Below, piece by piece: positions 22,161 through 58,852 of a DNA stretch of 64,000 bases. The DNA is taken from contig NZ_JBFJPY010000005.1 of the NCBI RefSeq assembly GCF_041616895.1, positions 1,401 through 65,400 on the forward strand. Reading direction: 5' to 3'. The notes under the pieces were generated by a model. That model did no database searches and was not told the origin of the DNA. It worked only from the letters and a program-made list of their open reading frames with translations. The translations under genes and the position numbers were made by a program. The stretch is from Arsukibacterium sp. (GTDB taxonomy: Bacteria; Pseudomonadota; Gammaproteobacteria; Enterobacterales; Alteromonadaceae). The first letter of the stretch is position 1. Each line of letters opens with the position of its first letter.

Positions 22161-23054
22161 TTAATCGGATTCCGCCAGGGTAAATTTTGCCACCCTGCCC
22201 GCAGGCAGCGATGACATATCAAAAGGTTTATTGTTTAGGGTGATCTTGACCACGCTAGGGTTACCCAGTGTTACTACAAAAGGCGCTTTGCCGGTCACGG
22301 TCATGGTATAGCCGGCCTCTTTAGTGCCGTAAGCGATACGGTTCCCCTCAGCATCCAGCACATCAATCCAGCAATTATCACTAAACGCCATGGTAATAAC
22401 ATCTGTCTCCAGCGCTAACGAACTTGGACTATTGCGCTCAGAAGTGCGGTCAACCACACTGTAGTCAGCCAACTCTGGATCAGTAACTGCCGCATTAATT
22501 TCTGGTTCAACGCCTGTTGTATCGCCAGTCGTTGGCGCTGCTGGCGTGCTTTGCTCCGCTGCGCTATCGCCAGTGCTGGCGTCAGCGTCAGTCGACGTTG
22601 CTGCTCTGTCAAGCTGCTCTGCGACAAACTGGGCAGTGGAATTTTCAGCTGCCGGCTCTGCAGTTTGCCACCACCACAACACCAGCATTAGCACTAAAAT
22701 AAAGCCCATGGCGTAGGTAATCCACATAAAGCGGTTTTCGGTGGCCTGAATTTCAGCACGATTTGAAAAAGTACGCATTGGTTTGGCCGGTTCAGCAGTG
22801 CCACCGTTTTGCTGCTCAAATGCAGACAATACCTGCTCTTCAGGTAACTTCACCAGCCGGGCGTAAGCGCGCAGATAGCCACGAACAAAGGTAACCAACA
22901 TGCTACTGTCGAGTTCATCCGCTTCGATCTGCTGCACCAGGTTAACCCGCAAATTCAGTTGCAATGCTACATCAGCAACACTGAGTTGCCGTTGCTCCCG
23001 GGCCTGACGTAATAACTGACCTGCGCTGAGTTCTGTCGCTTCTGTTGTCGTCAT
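22161..23054 (-). CDS. rodZ: Cytoskeleton protein RodZ
   Basis: N-terminal HTH ([10 protein letters not shown]...[10 protein letters not shown]), one TM, C-terminal DUF4115-like domain ([14 protein letters not shown]). Confidence 0.93.
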
Positions 23055-25078
23055 GGTTCAATACTGGCCGGATCGGTAACCAGCACCTGTTGGCCTACCT
23101 GTAACTTACTTTGTTCTGTCAGGTTATTCCATGCCATAAAGCGTTCCAGCCGGATATTATAGCGATATGAAATCCCGAACATGGTTTCTCCCGCAGCAAC
23201 CTGATGGTAAGGCTCAGTAACCTCCAGCGGCTCACTAAACTCTGCCAGCCTCGCTACTGTTTGCATTTGCAACTGCGCGTCATCGACTTTAGTCAGCCAA
23301 ATTCGCTGACCGGTTTTGATGACAGATTCCGGGGTTAATTGGTTCCACTCCATCAGCTTTGCCAGCCGGATATTATGGGCTACCGAAATGGCATACAGTG
23401 ACTCACCTTCCTGTACCAGATGAAATTCAGGTGCGCTGTCATCAGACCGTGGCATAGCGGCAACTTGTGGCTGTTCGCTGGACGCGGTTTCAGTTTCCGG
23501 CAAGGTTTCTGCTGCGATAACTTCGCCAGTACTTTCATTTTCGCTTGCCGCCTGACCAGGCTGCGCTGCACTGGCGGCTTCCTGCTCAACCAGAACCGTC
23601 TCTGCTGGCAGGCTTACCGGAGGGGTAGCGGCCAAAATCATCTGGCTTGGGTCCTGTTGGCCTGATGTGGCTTTTGGTTGCTGTCCGGCTGAGGACTGTT
23701 GCGCGGCCAATTGCCGGGCTGTCTCAGCAGCTTGTTGCTCTGCAAGCTGTTGGTCTGCTATTTTTTTATCTGCTAGTTCACTGGCAGCACGTTGCTCGGC
23801 AGCCAGCTGCTCGGCGGCCAGTTGCTCGGCGGCCAGTTGCTCAGCCGCATTTTGAGCCGCCAGCGCTTCTGCAGCCGCTTGTTGTGCTGCTAATTGCCGG
23901 GATTTTTCGGCAGCTTGCGCTACGGCAGCTTGTTGTTCAGCCAAAACTTTCGCTGCAGTATCGTCTTGCTCCGGTAACTGGCTGGTTGCCAGAACGCCAG
24001 CAATGGCCTGGCTGCTCACGGAACGCTCTGCCGTGGTTGGCTGCTCTTTCTGCACGCTGGATGATGTGGTACCGGATTGGCTTTGCGGGCTATTGCCGCT
24101 GTCCTGCTCAGTTCTCAGATCTTGTTCAGGTTCATCTGCACTCGATTCAGTCGTTTTACGTCTGACAACTCGTAACCTGGGGTTGGCGACGGGCTCAGTG
24201 GGTGTGGCTGCAACAGCGTTATTATCAGGCAACACAATATTTGCCATTAAACTCAGTTTATATTGCTCACGCAGCTGCTCAAACTCACTATCGAGTAAAC
24301 GTTGCTGTAATAACAAACGGGCTTCTGGTGTATCAATGTATAAGGTAAGTAAGAGTTGTTCAGCATGCTTCATGGTGCTGACATCGCCCTGCTTTTCAGC
24401 CACCAGATAATTCAGCAGCGTGCTGCGCGCTGAAACCCGGCCTAAGCGCTGAATTCGCTGTAGCGATGTTTTTGCACCCACATTGTCGCCCATTGCATAA
24501 TTGATAGCGGCCAGATTGATCAGTGAACTGATCCGGGTGCCATTGTGAGATACTGAGGACTCAAGAAAGGTTTTCGCTTTACTGTAGCCTTGCTGATCGA
24601 GCTGGCAAAGCGCCAGATTTTCATAGCTCTCAGCCACCCTGATATAGCCGGGCCGTGAAATAGCCCGTAGCAGCAACGCTTCTGCTTCCTGGTATTTCCC
24701 AATTTGGCACAGAAATGCACCGTAGTTGTTGTAGGCATCCGCATTATTACTGTCTTTGTCGAGCGCTTTTTTATAGGCGTCTTCAGCCTGAACATGCTCG
24801 CCAACACTTTGGTAGTAAAAAGCCAACGCGTTATAAACTTCAGGTAAATCGGGGGCGAAGGCTTTCGCCCGTTCTAAGTTGTATTTGGCCTGGGTAGTAT
24901 CACCACGCCGTAAATAATTTAAGCCCAGAGAAATTCGGGTGCGGGCAGCTTCACTATTATCAAGACTTCGCTCACCAACCTGGCGGTCAGAGCCGACATA
25001 ACTGCTTTCTGACACACACGCCGTCAGGGTTAACGACACACACAGTGCGAGCCCTACCGAAAATTTCTGCATTACCAC
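23051..25078 (-). CDS. pilW: Type IV pilus pilotin PilW/PilF (TPR lipoprotein) extended by a low-complexity linker and two C-terminal LysM domains
   Basis: Lipobox LTAC and TPRs (AARTRISLGLNYL, AYNNYGAFLC, YENLALC). Position between rlmN and rodZ. LysM-like HLVQEGESLYAISVAHNI and HQVAAGETMFGISYRYNI. Start is GTG 25078 or ATG 25072. Confidence 0.85.
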   Translation of the reverse strand: MVMQKFSVGLALCVSLTLTACVSESSYVGSDRQVGERSLDNSEAARTRISLGLNYLRRGDTTQAKYNLERAKAFAPDLPEVYNALAFYYQSVGEHVQAEDAYKKALDKDSNNADAYNNYGAFLCQIGKYQEAEALLLRAISRPGYIRVAESYENLALCQLDQQGYSKAKTFLESSVSHNGTRISSLINLAAINYAMGDNVGAKTSLQRIQRLGRVSARSTLLNYLVAEKQGDVSTMKHAEQLLLTLYIDTPEARLLLQQRLLDSEFEQLREQYKLSLMANIVLPDNNAVAATPTEPVANPRLRVVRRKTTESSADEPEQDLRTEQDSGNSPQSQSGTTSSSVQKEQPTTAERSVSSQAIAGVLATSQLPEQDDTAAKVLAEQQAAVAQAAEKSRQLAAQQAAAEALAAQNAAEQLAAEQLAAEQLAAEQRAASELADKKIADQQLAEQQAAETARQLAAQQSSAGQQPKATSGQQDPSQMILAATPPVSLPAETVLVEQEAASAAQPGQAASENESTGEVIAAETLPETETASSEQPQVAAMPRSDDSAPEFHLVQEGESLYAISVAHNIRLAKLMEWNQLTPESVIKTGQRIWLTKVDDAQLQMQTVARLAEFSEPLEVTEPYHQVAAGETMFGISYRYNIRLERFMAWNNLTEQSKLQVGQQVLVTDPASIEP
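23791..23845 (-). repeat. 15-bp coding tandem repeat (AEQLA units) inside pilW
   Basis: gttgctcggcagcca / gctgctcggcggcca / gttgctcggcggcca / gttgctcagc on the plus strand. Confidence 0.9.
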
Positions 25079-25093
25079 TGGTCATCCCTTGGG

Positions 25094-26221
25094 TTACAGC
25101 AGCGTTTTAACCAGGATTGGCTGGCCTTTCTGCTGCTTCTTAATCAGTCTTTTGGTTCGATCAATCACATCGCCTACTAACTGGCCACAGGCTGCATCGA
25201 TATCATCGCCCCGGGTTTTCCGTACCATAACAGTAAAACCGTGTTGTTGTAACACCTTGTTAAAACGGTCAATCCGGGAGTTACTCGATCTTTTATAAGG
25301 TGAGCCCGGATACGGATTAAACGGGATCAGATTAATCTTTGCTGGCGTATCTTGCAATGCCTGCGCTAGCTCATGCGCCTGTTCCATACTATCGTTAACG
25401 CCATCGAGCATAACATACTCTACTGTGACCTTATCATTGGCCTTAGAGTTCTCGACATATCGGCGCGAAGCCGCTAAAAATTGCTCCATCGGGTATTTTT
25501 TATTCACTGGGACCAGTTCATCCCGCAGGGCATTATTGGGCGCATGCAATGAAATAGCCAGAGCCACATCTATTCGCTCACGCAATAAGTCCAGCGCCGG
25601 CACCACACCAGAGGTACTTAAGGTAACCCGGCGTTTGGACAATCCAAAACCGTAATCCTCCAGCATCAGTTCCATCGCCGGAACTACGTTGTTCAGGTTT
25701 AACAGTGGCTCGCCCATGCCCATCATCACTACGTTAGTGACAGGCTTTTCACCGGTATCACCGTAGCTGCCAATAATTTGTGCGACCCGCCACACCTGGC
25801 CGATAATTTCACTAACGCTAAGATTTCGGTTAAACCCCTGCTGCGCTGTCGAGCAAAACGTACAATCGAGAGCACAACCCACTTGTGAAGATACACAAAG
25901 CGTGCGCCGGTCTTTCTCCGGGATCCAGACAGTTTCCACCTCCTGGCCGCCGGCTAAGCCCATCACAAATTTTATGGTACCGTCGGTACTGTCTTGCCGG
26001 GTAACAACTACAGGGGCCGCTATCACCGCCAGGGTTTTTAACTTATCGCGCAATGTTTTATTGATATTGGTCATTTTGTCGAAGTCATCAACGCAGTAGT
26101 GGTAGATCCATTTCATTACCTGATCGGCACGAAATGGTTTCTCACCTAATGACACAAAAAATTCCTGCATTTGTGGACGGGTAAAATCTAACAAATTTAC
26201 CTGATTTACCGGCTTGTTCAT
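25094..26221 (-). CDS. rlmN: Dual-specificity 23S rRNA/tRNA methyltransferase RlmN (radical SAM)
   Basis: [30 protein letters not shown]. Start MNKPVNQ at 26221 preferred. Confidence 0.97.
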
Positions 26222-26310
26222 ACCCTGATAACTCCTGCTGACACCTATCAATAACTCACTATTACCGCTTTATATATCCAAAGAATTTCGAAAGACGATG
26301 GATAAAGGCA

Positions 26311-50751: not shown

Positions 50752-52215
50752 CTATTCCTGCAGTTCTGACTCAGCACGCAATCGAGCCAACGCCTTAATT
50801 TCTTGCTGTACCTGTCCAACTGGCTTAATAAACGGACCTGCAGTGCGCAACGGTTCTGCCAGTAACGCTCTTGCCTGACGAGCGCTACTCACATCTGAAT
50901 AATGCCCCTCCGCCAACAATATCCACTGCAATTGGCCCTGCCAGCTGCGCTGATACACCGCTATAGCGATATCAGGGTATGTACGCATAAAGCGTGCTAA
51001 TGCTACTTCAGACGATAACACAGCCAGCTGCAATACTCTGGACTCTGCCGGCAATTCAAGCAATTGCGGTTCCTGATAGCGAAAATCGCTTGTCAGCGCC
51101 GCAGCAACACCGTTGTGCTCTACCGGGTTTGTCGCAGGAGAACCGGTAATCGGTTCACTGATTACCGCTGCTTGCGCTTCGGTATCGACAGGCTCTGTAG
51201 TCGGCATTTCGCTTTTTGCAGACTGCGCGGGTATAGCAATTAACTCAGGCTGTGTATGTGCATTCTCCTGCCCCGATGTAAGCAGAGGACTTTCAAAAAC
51301 GTCAGAGCGCTTGTTAAGTTCAGGACTGGTTGCTGCAGTTACAATGTTGCTGTTTGTTAGCTCAGGGTTGTTTGTCGAGTCCTCAATGATATTTTCTGTC
51401 TGCTCAGCGCTACTGGTAAGTTCGGGGCTTTTTATCTGCTCAGGGCTGTTTATCTGCTCTGGGCTAATTACTGCAGAGCCGTCTTGCTGTATTTCCGGCT
51501 TGGAATTGGTTTCTGCTGTAGCTTGCTCTTGGCTTGCTGGTTGTAGCCAGCTAATTATCCCAGTCAGCAGCAACAACACTATCACCGCAGGTAACAACCA
51601 CAACACGACAGAAAGAGGCTTGCGTTCTTCAGGTTTAATCACCGCAGAGTGCAACAGGTGCATGTTTCCGGCACTGGTTGCGAATCGTTCAGCAATAGCA
51701 AGCGGATCAAGTGGTTGGTCTTTAAGTACCTGACTTGCATCTTGCAGCGTAGGAATATTAATACCTAAATTCAGTGCCATCCTGATCGAGGGCTCGGATA
51801 TCAGAAAAAAACCGAGGCAATCAAGCTGCAGTAATTTTTGTTGCGTTTGTTCAGAAAGCTGATCAAAATTGTCAACAATTAATAATAAAGGTAGGACACC
51901 TGTTACTGGCTCAGCCATCAAGTCAGACAAAGAGAGCGTTGTACTATGATTACCAAACCAATGTTGCTGCAATAAGGCATCTATCTCAGTAGACGCCAAG
52001 GGGCCGGTTAGCAGCGCGACATTAGCCTGATCTGAGAAAAGCTCAGCCAGCGCTAAACTAATTGTCGATTTTCCGCTGCCTTTTGCTCCGACTAAACCAA
52101 TGTTCTGAAAATCGTTAAACGCCAGTTGAAATAATAATCGGTTTAGTAGTTCATGTTGTGATGGCAACAAATGATCCAACTCAGCAAGTTTTTGCTGTAG
52201 TAGCGAGGTATCCAT
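50752..52215 (-). CDS. damX: DamX-like SPOR protein with an N-terminal P-loop domain
   Basis: Position between aroB and dam. Walker A-like GAKGSGKS, Walker B-like LLIVDN, one TM, low-complexity linker, SPOR-like C-terminus (LQLAVLSS...GHYSDVSSARQA). Confidence 0.72.
   Translation of the reverse strand: MDTSLLQQKLAELDHLLPSQHELLNRLLFQLAFNDFQNIGLVGAKGSGKSTISLALAELFSDQANVALLTGPLASTEIDALLQQHWFGNHSTTLSLSDLMAEPVTGVLPLLLIVDNFDQLSEQTQQKLLQLDCLGFFLISEPSIRMALNLGINIPTLQDASQVLKDQPLDPLAIAERFATSAGNMHLLHSAVIKPEERKPLSVVLWLLPAVIVLLLLTGIISWLQPASQEQATAETNSKPEIQQDGSAVISPEQINSPEQIKSPELTSSAEQTENIIEDSTNNPELTNSNIVTAATSPELNKRSDVFESPLLTSGQENAHTQPELIAIPAQSAKSEMPTTEPVDTEAQAAVISEPITGSPATNPVEHNGVAAALTSDFRYQEPQLLELPAESRVLQLAVLSSEVALARFMRTYPDIAIAVYQRSWQGQLQWILLAEGHYSDVSSARQARALLAEPLRTAGPFIKPVGQVQQEIKALARLRAESELQE
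51425..51465 (-). repeat. 18-bp coding tandem repeat (SPEQIN/SPEQIK) in the damX linker
   Basis: gggctttttatctgctca / gggctgtttatctgctct / gggct. Confidence 0.8.
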
Positions 52216-53974: not shown

Positions 53975-56056
53975 TTATTGACCTTCAGTCAGGATCTTAG
54001 GGGTGACGAAAATAAGTAACTCGTTTTTCTCATTAACATCACGTTTTGACCGGAATAAAGCACCAACATAAGGGATGTCACCAAACATAGGTACCTTCGA
54101 TACTGTTGATAATATTTGCTGCTGATAGATACCGCCAAGCACGATAGTCTCGCCGTTATCTACCAGAACCTGGGTCTGAATTTGCTGGGTGTCTATCGCT
54201 GTTGCTGGTCCTGTTGGCGTTTGAACCGTTTCACCGCGGGTATTCTGGGTAATAACCAGGTCCAGAATAATTTTATTATCCGGCGTTATTTGCGGCGTTA
54301 CTGTCAGACTCAGTACTGCTTTCTTAAATTCAACGGTGGTTGCACCGCTGGATGCAGCCTGTACATAAGGGATCTCTACACCTTGCTCAATTCGCGCTTC
54401 TTTCTGGTTTGAGGTGGTTATCCGCGGACTGGCGATAATTTCACCTTTGTTTTCCTGCTCCAGTGCTGACAGCTCTAAATCAAGCAAGGTACCATCCGCT
54501 AACCGTGCCACATGGAATGCAATACTACCCGCCGGATTCTGAATAGGCAGATTAACGTTCCAGCGATCATCCAGTGCCGGAAACTGACCAGTAGAAATCG
54601 CGTTTGAGCCATTAGCATTACCCGATACTCCACGGTTGCCACCACTGGTACTCTGCTGGTCACTAAAGCCCCAACGAATTCCTAACTCATCGGTAACACT
54701 GTCGCGTACCGTCACCATTCTTGATTCGATCAACACCTGTCGGACCGGCACATCTAACCGTTCGATCAATTTGCGAACACTTTCAATATTCTTGGCAGTA
54801 TCTTTAATTAAGATGGTGTTGGTACGCTCATCTACAACCACACTGCCACGACTGGACAATAAGGTGGCATCACGGTTGGCCAGTAAACCAGCCAGATCAG
54901 CGGCCTTAGCATAATTAATGGTCAAATAATCAGAATAAAGTGCCTCAAGTTGCTCAACCTGCTGCTTCGCTTCTAACTCGCGCGCTTCCCTGGCTGATAA
55001 TTCTTCGGTAGGTGCTACCATCAGAATATTACCATCCATCCGCTTATCGAGGCCTTTAACCCGCAACACGATATCAAGCGCCTGATCCCATGGCGTACCG
55101 TCTAAACGCAAGGTAATATTACCGGTAACCGAATCACTGGTGACCAGGTTAAAGCCGTTATAATCTGCAATAATTTGTAGCACTGTCCGGATTGGAATAT
55201 CCTGGAAGTTCAGCGATATTGGTCGGCCTTTATATTCACGACCACCGCCCAGGATACTGCGATTGGTGGTATCACGTTCAATATTAAGCGTGAAAATATT
55301 GTCTATTTGCTGATAGGTGTAGGTGAAAGCATCACTGGTTGCAATTTCTAAACGGGCCGACGCGCCCTCTTTGAAAGTTTCTATTCCGGTAACGATAGTA
55401 CCAAAATCCATGACATCCAGCTGATATAACAACTCATCCAAAATGTCAGTATTGTGAAATTCAACAATTAACTTCCCCGCACGTTCACTGACATCTACCG
55501 CTGCAGTATTTTCACGCAGGAACACTAACACCCGGCCTTCGCCTTTTTCGCCGCGGCGAAAATCTATGGCCTGAACCCGGTTGATGTAAGTAGGTGTTAC
55601 GTCAGCTGCCTGTCCCACTTGCTCGGCAGTCGGGTTGTCAGAAATGTGCATGTAGAACACATTGCCACGCACCCGGGTGCGATATATCTTTAAATAATCG
55701 AGATAAATTGTTGATTTAAAACCTTCACCGAGGAATTCAGACTTTATTCTTTTAACTCCGGCTTTATCGATCATCACTTGTTCAAGTTTTTCTTCGTAGT
55801 CAGAGTTATCGAAATACAGCTCTATCCGCGCTGGCTCATTAAACACCTGAATACTGGGATCTGTATAAAGGTCTTCATCGAAGATAAACTCGATCTCTGT
55901 TTCGCCGGTGAGCAAGGGGTTATACCTGACATCGTACAACAAAGGGACTGCTGCTGCGGGCAATGCGAACAACAATAACGCTGTCACGGCCAGCTGGGTG
56001 CCGGTGATTCCTCGGGAAATTCTTTTGATTATTTTATCCATGATATACTCGCACAC
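53975..56056 (-). CDS. pilQ: Type IV pilus secretin PilQ
   Basis: ISLNFQDIPIRTVLQ, RQVLIESR, GEIIASPRI, VPMFGDIP, ELLIFVTPKI. Last gene of pilMNOPQ. Start may be 56041. Confidence 0.96.
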   Translation of the reverse strand: MCEYIMDKIIKRISRGITGTQLAVTALLLFALPAAAVPLLYDVRYNPLLTGETEIEFIFDEDLYTDPSIQVFNEPARIELYFDNSDYEEKLEQVMIDKAGVKRIKSEFLGEGFKSTIYLDYLKIYRTRVRGNVFYMHISDNPTAEQVGQAADVTPTYINRVQAIDFRRGEKGEGRVLVFLRENTAAVDVSERAGKLIVEFHNTDILDELLYQLDVMDFGTIVTGIETFKEGASARLEIATSDAFTYTYQQIDNIFTLNIERDTTNRSILGGGREYKGRPISLNFQDIPIRTVLQIIADYNGFNLVTSDSVTGNITLRLDGTPWDQALDIVLRVKGLDKRMDGNILMVAPTEELSAREARELEAKQQVEQLEALYSDYLTINYAKAADLAGLLANRDATLLSSRGSVVVDERTNTILIKDTAKNIESVRKLIERLDVPVRQVLIESRMVTVRDSVTDELGIRWGFSDQQSTSGGNRGVSGNANGSNAISTGQFPALDDRWNVNLPIQNPAGSIAFHVARLADGTLLDLELSALEQENKGEIIASPRITTSNQKEARIEQGVEIPYVQAASSGATTVEFKKAVLSLTVTPQITPDNKIILDLVITQNTRGETVQTPTGPATAIDTQQIQTQVLVDNGETIVLGGIYQQQILSTVSKVPMFGDIPYVGALFRSKRDVNEKNELLIFVTPKILTEGQ

Positions 56057-56059
56057 CTA

Positions 56060-56596
56060 TCAATTACTCGCCATTGCTGTAGTTTCAACCATCTGAATCA
56101 TGGTCGTCCGTTCTTTCCAGCAACCTGCCCCGTCTGGGATTAACTCTAACAATTCAACATGAGTTGGCTCTACACTAATTACCCGCCCATGAAATAAACC
56201 AACATAATTATTTAACGTTATCCGGTGTAAGGTTTTATCTGACGCTTCGATCAACGCCCAGATATTACCGGTATCACCCAAGGTTCCACGCATCTTGAGG
56301 TTATCAAGAGCATACTTCTCCAGCGGTTCTTTACGCCGTCTGGGATCCGGATGCAGACAATCCTGAACTTGCAAGAATCGATCCTGAACGGCTTCAGGCC
56401 GTGGCTCTGAAAACGGACTACGACTATTTTGAGATAAATAAGCTATATGCTCAAACTCTTTAACCTCTGGTAACGGCTCTACTCGTGGCTGAGTGCTGGC
56501 TTTAACAGTGTCCATATGAGCCTGAACTTCACTTAAGTCATCAAAGCAACCAGAGAGTAAGGTTGCAACAGAAACTGCTAAGATGAGCTTTCTCAT
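56060..56596 (-). CDS. pilP: Type IV pilus lipoprotein PilP
   Basis: Lipobox LSGC, RSPF, KEPLEKYALDNLKMRGTL. Confidence 0.95.
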   Translation of the reverse strand: MRKLILAVSVATLLSGCFDDLSEVQAHMDTVKASTQPRVEPLPEVKEFEHIAYLSQNSRSPFSEPRPEAVQDRFLQVQDCLHPDPRRRKEPLEKYALDNLKMRGTLGDTGNIWALIEASDKTLHRITLNNYVGLFHGRVISVEPTHVELLELIPDGAGCWKERTTMIQMVETTAMASN

Positions 56597-57192
56597 TGTG
56601 CAGTCTCCTTATAGCGGTAAGTTTTCGCGGTAACATTAAAACGTAAACGTTCGTCTTTCTCTGTTTGGATGGAGAAATCGTGCAGACTGACTATCCGTGG
56701 TAATTTGGCAACCTCACTGACAAAGTTACCAAATTGATGGTAATCACCCACCACGTCAATTTTAATCGGCAATTCAGTATAAAATTCTTTTTCAATTTCC
56801 GGCTCCCAGTTTATCCTTAGAAAAGTTAAACCGCTTGTGGTACCAACATAAGTTATGTCGTCCAGTAGGCCAGGGGTTTCGTGAGTGGTTGGCAGCTGCT
56901 TAAGTAAAAAAGAAAACGTATTTTCCATTTCTATCATTTGCTGTTTGTACAAATCGAGATTAACTGCTGAGGCATACCGCGTGCGGTAAACCTGACGCAA
57001 CTCCGTTTCTTTTCGCTCAGCACTGTTTAATTCATCAATTTTGCTGTCAATTAATAAGAAGTAACTCAGAGTGCCAACTAAAGCCGCCAAAATAATGGCG
57101 AAAATAACTTTTGCTGCAACGGGCCAGGAGCCCATATTCTCAATATCAAGATCATTGATATCAATTTCAGATAAATTGAAATTCAGGCTCAT
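56593..57192 (-). CDS. pilO: Type IV pilus protein PilO
   Basis: GSWPVAAK, LLKQLP, FYTELPI, GDYHQFGNFVSEVAKLPRIVSL. Confidence 0.95.
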   Translation of the reverse strand: MSLNFNLSEIDINDLDIENMGSWPVAAKVIFAIILAALVGTLSYFLLIDSKIDELNSAERKETELRQVYRTRYASAVNLDLYKQQMIEMENTFSFLLKQLPTTHETPGLLDDITYVGTTSGLTFLRINWEPEIEKEFYTELPIKIDVVGDYHQFGNFVSEVAKLPRIVSLHDFSIQTEKDERLRFNVTAKTYRYKETAQ

Positions 57193-57785
57193 CGTGCACC
57201 ACCTCTCGCACTGGGTGTAACCGGCTCACTATCCTGCACCGCTTCATAGCCTTTTACGGTAAGATGCATTTTAAAGTTACTCAGTAACCGTGATTCATCT
57301 TTACCCGCTTCAATAAACTCTAGCAGCGGACTATCCAGTAAGTCAGACTGTTCAGCATCACGTAACATCGTAGACAGCCGGTTATTTGACTCACTGCGAC
57401 CAATTAATAATAAATTAGAGCCTTTTTTCTCTAACTGCGTCAAATAAATACCTGATGGCACTACCCGGGCAATTTCAGACATAATTTCTGTACCAAGATT
57501 TCGGCTGCCCTGTAGCTGTTCAATCAGGCTCATTCGCTGCTGTAAACTACGTTTTGTTTCATTCAAGGTGCGAATTTCAGCAATTTTCTGATCAAGCACC
57601 TTGATTTCATTTTCCAGATAGCGATTTCGCTGATACTGGCCATCGATCATACTGCTATAAACCATGTTAATCAGAAAAAACACCAGAAAACTCATTACTG
57701 CAGTCATCGCCAGTACGGTTACATATTGTTTTTGCTTTTCTTTGCGCGCAGCTTCACGCCAGGGCAGTAAATTTATATATGCCAT
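57189..57785 (-). CDS. pilN: Type IV pilus protein PilN
   Basis: MAYINLLPWRE, RMSLIEQLQ. Confidence 0.95.
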   Translation of the reverse strand: MAYINLLPWREAARKEKQKQYVTVLAMTAVMSFLVFFLINMVYSSMIDGQYQRNRYLENEIKVLDQKIAEIRTLNETKRSLQQRMSLIEQLQGSRNLGTEIMSEIARVVPSGIYLTQLEKKGSNLLLIGRSESNNRLSTMLRDAEQSDLLDSPLLEFIEAGKDESRLLSNFKMHLTVKGYEAVQDSEPVTPSARGGAR

Positions 57786-58852
57786 GATGAAAAACTCCGT
57801 AAGGCAAGGCCACTGGCAACCATTAATTGCGGGGCGCTTTTATTTAATTGTTCACGATCAACTGACGTGGCAACATCGATTGTTTTAAATGGATTGGCCA
57901 CCACAGTGTGGATGCCAAGCTCATCAATCAGTAGCCGGTCAATGCCTTCAATTAACGCGGTACCTCCAGAGACAATAAGGTAATCCACAGCATCGCGGCC
58001 ACTGCTGGTCAGATACATCTGGATGCCACGCCGTATTTGCTGCAGTAACATGGTCTGAAACGGTGCCAGCACTTCGAAGGTATAGTTTGGTGGTAAATCA
58101 CCACTTACTTTCGCCAGTTCAGCTTCGTCATAGCTTTTGTTGTAATAAGACAAAATACTGCGGGTATATTGCTCACCACCAAAGGACTGGTCGCGGGTAT
58201 ACAGTGTCTTACCTTTCTCAACAATACTTAATAAGGTCATAGTGGCACCAATATCAACCAGTGCCACGACTTTACCAGCTGCATCATCTGGTAATTGTTT
58301 CAAACATAATTCAGCAGCCCGGCTTAAGGCATAACTTTCAACATCTACTAACTTGGCACTGAAACCACCGTTGTCTAATGCCGCCACCCTTGCTTCAACA
58401 CTTTCAGTACGAGCGGCGCTTAGCAACACATTAACTTTAGAAGGGTCGGATTCATTCACATCCAGCTTTTCGAAATCAAGGCTAACTTCATTTAATGGGT
58501 AAGGAATTAAGGTATCCGCTTCAACTTCAATCTGGCTTTCCAGTTCAGCATCGGTTAATGACACATCCATGAAGATCACTTTGCTGATCACAGTAGATCC
58601 AGATACCGCAGCGGCAGCGAATTTGATCGACCTGGGGATCTTCTTACGGATCTTGCCGATCACATTGCCAACGGCTTCGATATCCTGGATCTCTCGATCT
58701 GACATCGCGCCTTTGATCATCGGCTCGACAGCAAAGGCTTCAACCTTATACTGGTTACCGTGCTGACTTAACAGCACAGCCTTGACAGAGTGAGCACCGA
58801 TATCAATGCCAACCATCATAGGTGTTTGTTTACTGAACAGGCTTTTTATCAT
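57773..58852 (-). CDS. pilM: Type IV pilus protein PilM
   Basis: Actin-like GIDIGAHSVK, VDIGAT, LMVASGLALRSF. Confidence 0.95.
   Translation of the reverse strand: MIKSLFSKQTPMMVGIDIGAHSVKAVLLSQHGNQYKVEAFAVEPMIKGAMSDREIQDIEAVGNVIGKIRKKIPRSIKFAAAAVSGSTVISKVIFMDVSLTDAELESQIEVEADTLIPYPLNEVSLDFEKLDVNESDPSKVNVLLSAARTESVEARVAALDNGGFSAKLVDVESYALSRAAELCLKQLPDDAAGKVVALVDIGATMTLLSIVEKGKTLYTRDQSFGGEQYTRSILSYYNKSYDEAELAKVSGDLPPNYTFEVLAPFQTMLLQQIRRGIQMYLTSSGRDAVDYLIVSGGTALIEGIDRLLIDELGIHTVVANPFKTIDVATSVDREQLNKSAPQLMVASGLALRSFSSWHI

Follow-up and report, generated by a model that had tools for sequence, protein, structure and literature searches.

PilW/PilF, the pilotin, is an outer-membrane tetratricopeptide repeat (TPR) lipoprotein that acts as a chaperone for the delivery of PilQ monomers to the outer membrane and helps them to form multimers. 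Pilotins are thought of as small, transient escorts. How the secretin is placed in the envelope and attached to the cell wall is a matter of continuing study, with three known routes: AMIN domains on PilQ, TsaP, and FimV. PilF from Pseudomonas aeruginosa (PDB 2HO1/2FI7), PilW from Neisseria meningitidis (PDB 2VQ2), and Tgl from Myxococcus xanthus each consist of a lipoprotein signal and a six-TPR superhelix and, at ∼250 amino acids (aa), end after the TPR domain. The PilW analyzed here is encoded in a 64,000-nucleotide stretch of DNA from Arsukibacterium sp. (contig NZ_JBFJPY010000005.1, positions 1,401–65,400; hereafter the window) and has the same signal and superhelix, but it carries ∼390 further residues made up of a spacer and two LysM domains. 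The literature treats AMIN, TsaP, and FimV as the wall anchors of the secretin, and wall binding by all three matters for how the secretin is assembled and where it is placed (PMC10653833, PMC5285504, PMC9239104); full-text literature searches found no description of a PilF/PilW–LysM fusion. For this lineage the architecture is already on record, but only as database annotation, in the form of precomputed Pfam matches on hundreds of entries named only "PilW," a name that hides the extra LysM module. PilW–LysM is an undescribed yet common variant of the pilotin across the Alteromonadaceae, taken here as GTDB's broad family (Arsukibacterium, Rheinheimera, Alishewanella, Alkalimonas, Pseudoalteromonas, Algicola, and others). 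That such a fusion exists is no great surprise, since parts of envelope machines frequently carry a fused wall-binding module.

Identity and architecture of the extended PilW

The window gene is the organism's single PilW/PilF ortholog, as judged by profile score, fold, synteny, and copy number. The NCBIfam equivalog model for PilW (TIGR02521, cut-off 154 bits) matched residues 11–243 with 193.4 bits (E = 4e-57) in a protein search and scored 197.2 bits for pilW in a six-frame genome scan; several Pfam TPR families matched as well. This was the only TIGR02521 match above cut-off in the 3.57-Mb genome (99.99% complete), in which no second, canonical short PilW was found, the other matches being generic TPR proteins far below cut-off. 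When the PDB was searched with Foldseek, ranks 1–4 were taken by P. aeruginosa PilF (2ho1/2fi7) and N. meningitidis PilW (2vq2), with target template modeling (TM) scores of 0.76–0.79, and a phmmer search of PDB sequences returned PilF at E = 7.5e-24. NCBIfam assignments gave the locus order hisS–ispG–rodZ–pilW–rlmN–ndk, which marks the canonical pilF/pilW locus; rlmN–pilF–rodZ–ispG–hisS is also the pilF neighborhood in P. aeruginosa. A complete set of pilMNOPQ genes, which had been predicted to share the window with pilW, were located at 53975–58852, 29 kb from pilW, and the pilQ product is presumed to be the secretin that this pilotin serves. Two cysteines in TPR3 and TPR4 (Cys124 and Cys158, encoded within 24605–24709) occur without exception in the 21 family sequences aligned. 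In N. meningitidis PilW an essential disulfide links TPR3 and TPR4 (PMC10653833). In P. aeruginosa PilF the corresponding positions are occupied by Tyr and Val.

The protein begins with a lipoprotein signal, MQKFSVGLALCVSLTLTA followed by the lipobox cysteine, that was read directly from the sequence. The lipobox is L-T-A-C, and its Cys21 is invariant both in the 21 family sequences and in 60 sequences of the Rheinheimera clade (Rheinheimera plus Arsukibacterium), while Val at +2 points to probable sorting to the outer membrane. An AlphaFold2 model built with the 60-sequence alignment placed the TPR helices at residues 38–247 with high confidence (predicted local distance difference test, pLDDT, 93–97), with extra helices to residue 280. 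Disorder was predicted at residues 288–373 and 462–548, and the C-terminal region formed two β-α-α-β LysM folds (residues 552–594 and 624–666, pLDDT 80–92). Pfam LysM (PF01476) matched the protein in two stretches with a total of 80.7 bits against a cut-off of 20.9; the bits listed for each domain in Table 1 come from the six-frame genome scan and both exceed the same gathering score.

The original prediction, made from sequence alone, had described a single uninterrupted 675-aa frame with a lipoprotein signal, a TPR pilotin domain, a TolA-like linker of about 280 residues with a helical core, and two C-terminal LysM domains. Frame, signal, TPR domain, and both LysM domains were borne out. As for the linker, the helical AAEQL core agreed with a predicted helix of 88 residues, but the length came to ∼270 aa, and the likeness to TolA did not hold. 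Neither Pfam nor NCBIfam matched PilW to a TolA family at E ≤ 1; "TolA-like" therefore describes composition only, an Ala/Glu/Gln-rich helical character (residues 311–548 contain 23% Ala, 16% Gln, 11% Glu, and 11% Ser), and TolA homology of the spacer was rejected.

A basic motif, PVANP-RLRVVRRK (residues 296–309), lies in the first disordered segment, a short way past the TPR domain. Across the Rheinheimera clade, residues 293–309 (24152–24202) are near-invariant as P-x-x-P-V-A-N-P-[KR]-L-[KR]-V-V-[KR]-R-K, and the form P-x-[IL]-[KR]-[IV]-V-[KR]-[KR] recurs in several other family genera. As PVANP-[KR]L[KR]VV[KR]RK, the clade-specific motif follows the TPR domain in Rheinheimera, Pseudoalteromonas, and related genera. 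This motif could be a ligand peptide for the TPR groove or for PilQ.

Conservation, distribution, and integrity of the fusion

Conservation was expressed as mean identity to the window protein over the 60 Rheinheimera-clade sequences. The TPR part showed 77% identity, LysM1 75% at a fixed length of 49 aa, and LysM2 79% at a fixed length of 48 aa, against 27% for the spacer, the length of which ranged from 117 to 309 aa. Because the LysM domains are conserved like the TPR domain and the spacer is neither conserved nor constant in length, purifying selection acts on the wall-binding module but not on the spacer. A tight signature, H-x-V-x-x-G-E-x-L-[YF]-x-I-S-x-x-Y-N...W-N-x-L, is common to all LysM domains borne by PilW. 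In a tree built from 28 of these domains (50 columns), resolution was too low to tell a single origin of the two-domain form from several. The nearest relatives outside PilW were MltD-type LysM domains at ∼30% identity.

For the family survey, 121 genomes from 59 genera were scanned with TIGR02521 at its cut-off, and frame length was used as the measure of extension. PilW exceeded the cut-off in 111 genomes, with frames of 309–831 aa in 103 of these (∼93%) and of 261–293 aa in the other eight. Congeners had frames of 520–697 aa in 22 of 24 cases, and PilW frames in thirteen other families of the same order measured 250–283 aa. A LysM domain was found at the C-terminal end of every one of 19 extended genes sampled (310–824 aa, each from a different genus), singly in 12 and as a pair in seven; the single 260-aa gene among the 20 family samples had none, so that Pfam LysM was present in 20 of the 21 aligned sequences once the window protein is included. 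In the shortest extended PilW (310 aa), LysM follows the TPR domain directly, and at the other extreme spacers reach ∼500 aa, a range that shows a long spacer to be inessential to the design.

Searches of a set of 5.8 billion proteins gave the same result. The best 120 homologs, from Rheinheimera, Arsukibacterium, and Alishewanella, were 520–740 aa long, and all 120 carried Pfam LysM; the source names were just "PilW" or "PilF." The full-length architecture was present in named genomes of Arsukibacterium (the nearest match, at 87% identity), Rheinheimera, Alishewanella, Alkalimonas, and Algicola, and in 37 of 39 Pseudoalteromonas genomes. PilW–LysM is thus the normal PilW of the Alteromonadaceae and not something special to this genome, given the 103 extended genes among 111 and hundreds of database copies.

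Plain PilW without LysM (261–293 aa) was seen in G067, G116, and G157, which are all the sampled genomes of one small-genome genus, and further in family genomes G074, G078, G097, G098, and G140. These are probably secondary losses and would offer natural controls. PilW was absent from at least one sampled genome of four other family genera and, in two of these four, from every sampled genome.

The scan was extended to a class sample of 300 Gammaproteobacteria from ∼240 families, 215 of which had PilW above cut-off. Stop-to-stop frames of 300–685 aa occurred in this class-wide scan, and outside the Alteromonadaceae 40 were examined, drawn from the best 150 of 237 matching genomes and comprising every frame of at least 300 aa among the matches listed there, except one with an examined congener. 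Thirty-five proved to be ordinary PilW genes of 250–270 aa, lying in GC-rich genomes where the frame simply continues without a stop upstream of the gene; two had low-complexity tails, and three had a C-terminal SPOR domain; LysM was found on none of these 40 frames from the best 150 of the 237 genomes. The SPOR domains scored 28.4 (L039), 27.6 (L043), and 23.6 bits (L150), the first two belonging to one gammaproteobacterial family and the third to another. Each SPOR-bearing genome also has a canonical short PilW, and the SPOR forms are therefore paralogs. About a dozen PilW + SPOR clusters from uncultured Gammaproteobacteria, all named PilW or PilF, were present in the large protein set. Because SPOR fusions arose in other lineages, a pilotin and a wall-binding module have been joined more than once.

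The pilW frame of the window is single and free of internal stops in the ORF (open reading frame) listing and its translation (675 aa plus TGA); gene callers elsewhere start it two codons in, at the ATG (MQKF...) and not the GTG, and its TGA overlaps the rodZ ATG (ATGA). An independent contig from a marine metagenome run (Logan contig X1) covers the whole of pilW in frame, with a 30-nt deletion at 23802 as the sole difference, and protein P0002 is identical to the window PilW except for two AAEQL units fewer (a 10-aa gap). Because the deletion falls in a 15-bp tandem repeat, the spacer may change length by slippage or the repeat may collapse in assembly, and the difference in repeat units between assemblies would fit either a slippage polymorphism or an assembly collapse. 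The low-complexity spacer, its slippage-prone repeat, and this two-unit difference are what could be said for the long frame being a misassembled or frameshift-fused gene pair, or the extension a neutral appendage. Such an account is barely credible, as the independent contig crosses pilW in frame, the same layout recurs in more than 100 orthologs from isolates and complete genomes, and conservation of the LysM domains matches that of the TPR domain. The contig, two AAEQL units apart, and the orthologs together led us to reject an assembly or frameshift artifact.

The features of the locus and the SPOR-bearing paralogs are collected in Table 1. Elsewhere in the window, a 487-aa ORF on the minus strand (50752–52215) lies directly downstream of aroK–aroB, the position that damX occupies in enterobacteria; it gave weak P-loop/AAA Pfam matches and no SPOR match.

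Table 1. Features of the PilW–LysM locus and of PilW–SPOR paralogs in other genomes (window positions unless a locus handle is given)
Feature	Coordinates	Strand	Details
pilW (pilF) gene	23051..25078	minus	675 aa from GTG at 25078, or 673 aa from ATG at 25072
Lipoprotein signal peptide	25016..25078	minus	Lipobox L-T-A-C, Cys21; read from sequence; helix predicted at residues 7–19
PilW/PilF TPR domain	24239..24967	minus	Residues 38–280: six TPRs to residue 247, two extra helices
Disordered spacer 1 (predicted)	23960..24238	minus	Residues 281–373; pLDDT 32–50
Long Ala/Gln/Glu-rich helix (predicted)	23696..23959	minus	Residues 374–461, 88 aa; pLDDT 79–90; ∼13 nm if straight
15-bp tandem repeat, AAEQL ×4	23783..23842	minus	Inside the spacer helix; Tandem Repeats Finder (TRF); only two units in another, near-identical assembly
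Disordered spacer 2 (predicted)	23435..23695	minus	Residues 462–548; Ser/Thr/Glu/Pro/Ala-rich; pLDDT 29–40
LysM domain 1	23288..23434	minus	Residues 549–597; PF01476 44.7 bits; pLDDT 80–89
LysM domain 2	23075..23218	minus	Residues 621–668; PF01476 45.3 bits; pLDDT 86–92
rodZ	22161..23054	minus	Downstream neighbor, translationally coupled via ATGA overlap; Pfam RodZ_C + HTH_25, NCBIfam RodZ
rlmN	25094..26251	minus	Upstream neighbor of pilW; NCBIfam RlmN 693 bits
pilQ	53975..56056	minus	TIGR02515 526 bits; Pfam Secretin, Secretin_N, STN, and at least one AMIN (residues 163–250, 40.6 bits)
pilP, pilO, pilN, pilM	56060..58852	minus	Upstream of pilQ; ORF sizes and order; PilM TIGR01175 352 bits
PilW–SPOR paralog	L039:931-2040	plus	∼370 aa; Pfam SPOR above cut-off 21
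PilW–SPOR paralog	L043:1236-2348	minus	∼370 aa; Pfam SPOR above cut-off 21
PilW–SPOR paralog	L150 (G290:C203)		377-aa ORF; Pfam SPOR above cut-off 21

Possible roles of the wall-binding module

The original prediction held that the pilotin itself may tether the secretin, or the outer membrane, to the wall. This is the mechanism best supported by the conservation of the LysM domains (75–79% identity, against 77% for the TPR domain), the ∼93% retention of the extension in the family, and the SPOR fusions, which put another wall-binding domain on PilW in two other gammaproteobacterial families. We consider it reasonably probable that PilW–LysM is a wall-tethered pilotin that helps the secretin to assemble and to stay stable at fixed sites. 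The lipid-anchored TPR domain would be suspended from the outer membrane's inner leaflet, where it binds PilQ, and the spacer would supply slack of no fixed length, allowing the LysM pair to reach the sacculus and grip glycan strands. The pilotin, and via the pilotin the nascent or assembled secretin, would in this way be tied to the wall. An extra link between outer membrane and wall would then exist at the pilus machine, the lateral diffusion of the pilotin would be limited, and secretin assembly and stability at fixed sites would be favored, with possible help against retraction forces. We infer the outer-membrane sorting, the periplasmic location of the LysM domains, peptidoglycan as their ligand, and any effect on PilQ from sequence.

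The LysM pilotin had been set in contrast to TsaP, FimV, and AMIN domains as the usual wall anchors, a contrast that the genome does not bear out. A TsaP ortholog is encoded between def and dprA/smg, the TsaP locus (C94:8834-9967); it is an exported protein of 369 aa that has its LysM at the N terminus. Two FimV_core genes, presumably encoding FimV/HubP-type polar organizers, were found at G000:C29:11500-11724 (frame of 911 aa) and G000:C28:6373-6567 (frame of 574 aa), and PilQ retains its AMIN domain. Since all of these are present, the LysM pair adds an anchor and replaces none, and compensation for lost wall anchors was rejected.

Several points weigh against a wall-tethered pilotin. Ligand, topology, and effect on PilQ are all drawn from the protein sequence and its predicted model. 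With TsaP, FimV, and an AMIN-bearing PilQ in place, a further anchor has no obvious necessity. The LysM module is dispensable in some backgrounds, because eight family genomes, among them one whole genus, have plain PilW, and a spacer length of ∼10 to ∼500 aa argues against any fixed-distance role. The main caveat is that the Myxococcus pilotin Tgl binds PilQ only transiently and departs after assembly (PMC10653833); a permanent pilotin tether therefore need not anchor the finished secretin, and the LysM module may position assembly and not anchor the finished pore.

The last point leads to the chief alternative, in which LysM acts as a spatial landmark that fixes where the pilotin sits, for example at the poles or future division sites, and hence where the secretin is inserted, with little anchoring. 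SPOR targets septal denuded glycan, and its use by the independent fusions elsewhere speaks for such a role; the spacer, nearly absent in some genera, is still compatible with positioning. The Myxococcus system argues the same way, with a transient pilotin and a polar placement of PilQ that depends on wall-binding AMIN domains (PMC10653833). On the other hand, positioning is already supplied by PilQ AMIN and FimV. The LysM ligand is also a generic glycan containing N-acetylglucosamine, and we know of no septal or polar specificity of LysM; a landmark role on its own is accordingly considered unlikely. A decidedly unlikely alternative makes the pilotin a fixed structural part, with a PilW ring that would stay around each PilQ as a lineage-specific, LysM-stapled collar between outer membrane and wall, license its insertion, and bear the retraction load.

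A general envelope tether was also weighed, whereby PilW would be another outer membrane–peptidoglycan staple like Pal, OmpA, or Lpp, selected for integrity apart from pili. Lpp (PF04728) was not detected in the organism's own genome, nor in 32 of 41 family genomes sampled, and PilW is a conserved lipoprotein of a housekeeping locus, predicted to be co-transcribed with rodZ, both of which would suit such a staple. There was, however, no anticorrelation: PilW is extended in all nine Lpp-bearing family genomes, and Lpp is likewise missing from the sampled genera with plain PilW. Lpp presence in the family thus does not track PilW extension, and compensation for absent Lpp was rejected. A pilotin would, moreover, be expected to be far scarcer than true staples, and the convergent SPOR fusions are specifically on PilW paralogs. 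A role as a general staple is improbable on these grounds.

Besides peptidoglycan, LysM domains have chitin oligomers among their ligands, and PilW–LysM is restricted to a marine family whose members often degrade chitin. It is conceivable on this basis that the periplasmic LysM pair binds chitin oligosaccharides instead of the wall and couples pilus assembly to chitin availability. We regard this as highly improbable, because the LysM sequences are ordinary, with MltD-type domains as their nearest relatives outside PilW, and the SPOR fusions elsewhere indicate the wall as the target. A bolder form of the collar reading, in which competition from periplasmic chitin oligosaccharides at the LysM sites would adjust pilus assembly, is given a similarly slim chance.

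A wall-tethered pilotin thus remains the preferred reading. Across an entire family of widespread marine bacteria, tractable Pseudoalteromonas strains among them, the pilotin is itself joined to a wall-binding module. This provides a natural experiment on the importance of a mobile pilotin, on whether it remains at the secretin once that is complete, and on the amount of outer membrane–wall coupling that the machine needs.

Comparison with known wall-binding systems

In the PilW–SPOR paralogs a TPR pilotin-type lipoprotein likewise ends in a C-terminal peptidoglycan-binding domain. They are second copies beside a canonical PilW, whereas the window PilW–LysM is the only copy. In PilQ, the AMIN domain resembles the LysM pair of PilW in being a wall-binding module in cis on a component of the secretin pathway, but it has another fold, sits on the secretin itself, and is still present in the window PilQ.

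TsaP resembles PilW–LysM as a LysM-bearing periplasmic protein that connects the secretin region of type IV pili to peptidoglycan, and it stabilizes the PilQ secretin. It differs in being a separate soluble protein, with LysM at the N terminus, a C-terminal domain of its own, and neither TPR nor lipid anchor, and the window PilW is not a TsaP, its architecture and locus being different from the N-terminal-LysM, def–dprA type. FimV/HubP proteins, which also promote secretin assembly, are built from a LysM-like domain that binds the wall, a long low-complexity stretch of acidic character, and a TPR-like domain. Their order and topology are reversed, however: FimV/HubP is an inner-membrane protein with a periplasmic N-terminal LysM, a cytoplasmic acidic region, and a C-terminal TPR, and no FimV model in NCBIfam (FimV_core, TIGR03505) matched the window PilW.

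NlpD, MltD, Pal, Lpp, and OmpA reach the sacculus from the outer membrane via a dedicated binding module, as PilW–LysM would. These proteins are hydrolases, activators of hydrolases, or bulk staples, and none is a secretin chaperone, which is what sets PilW apart from them.

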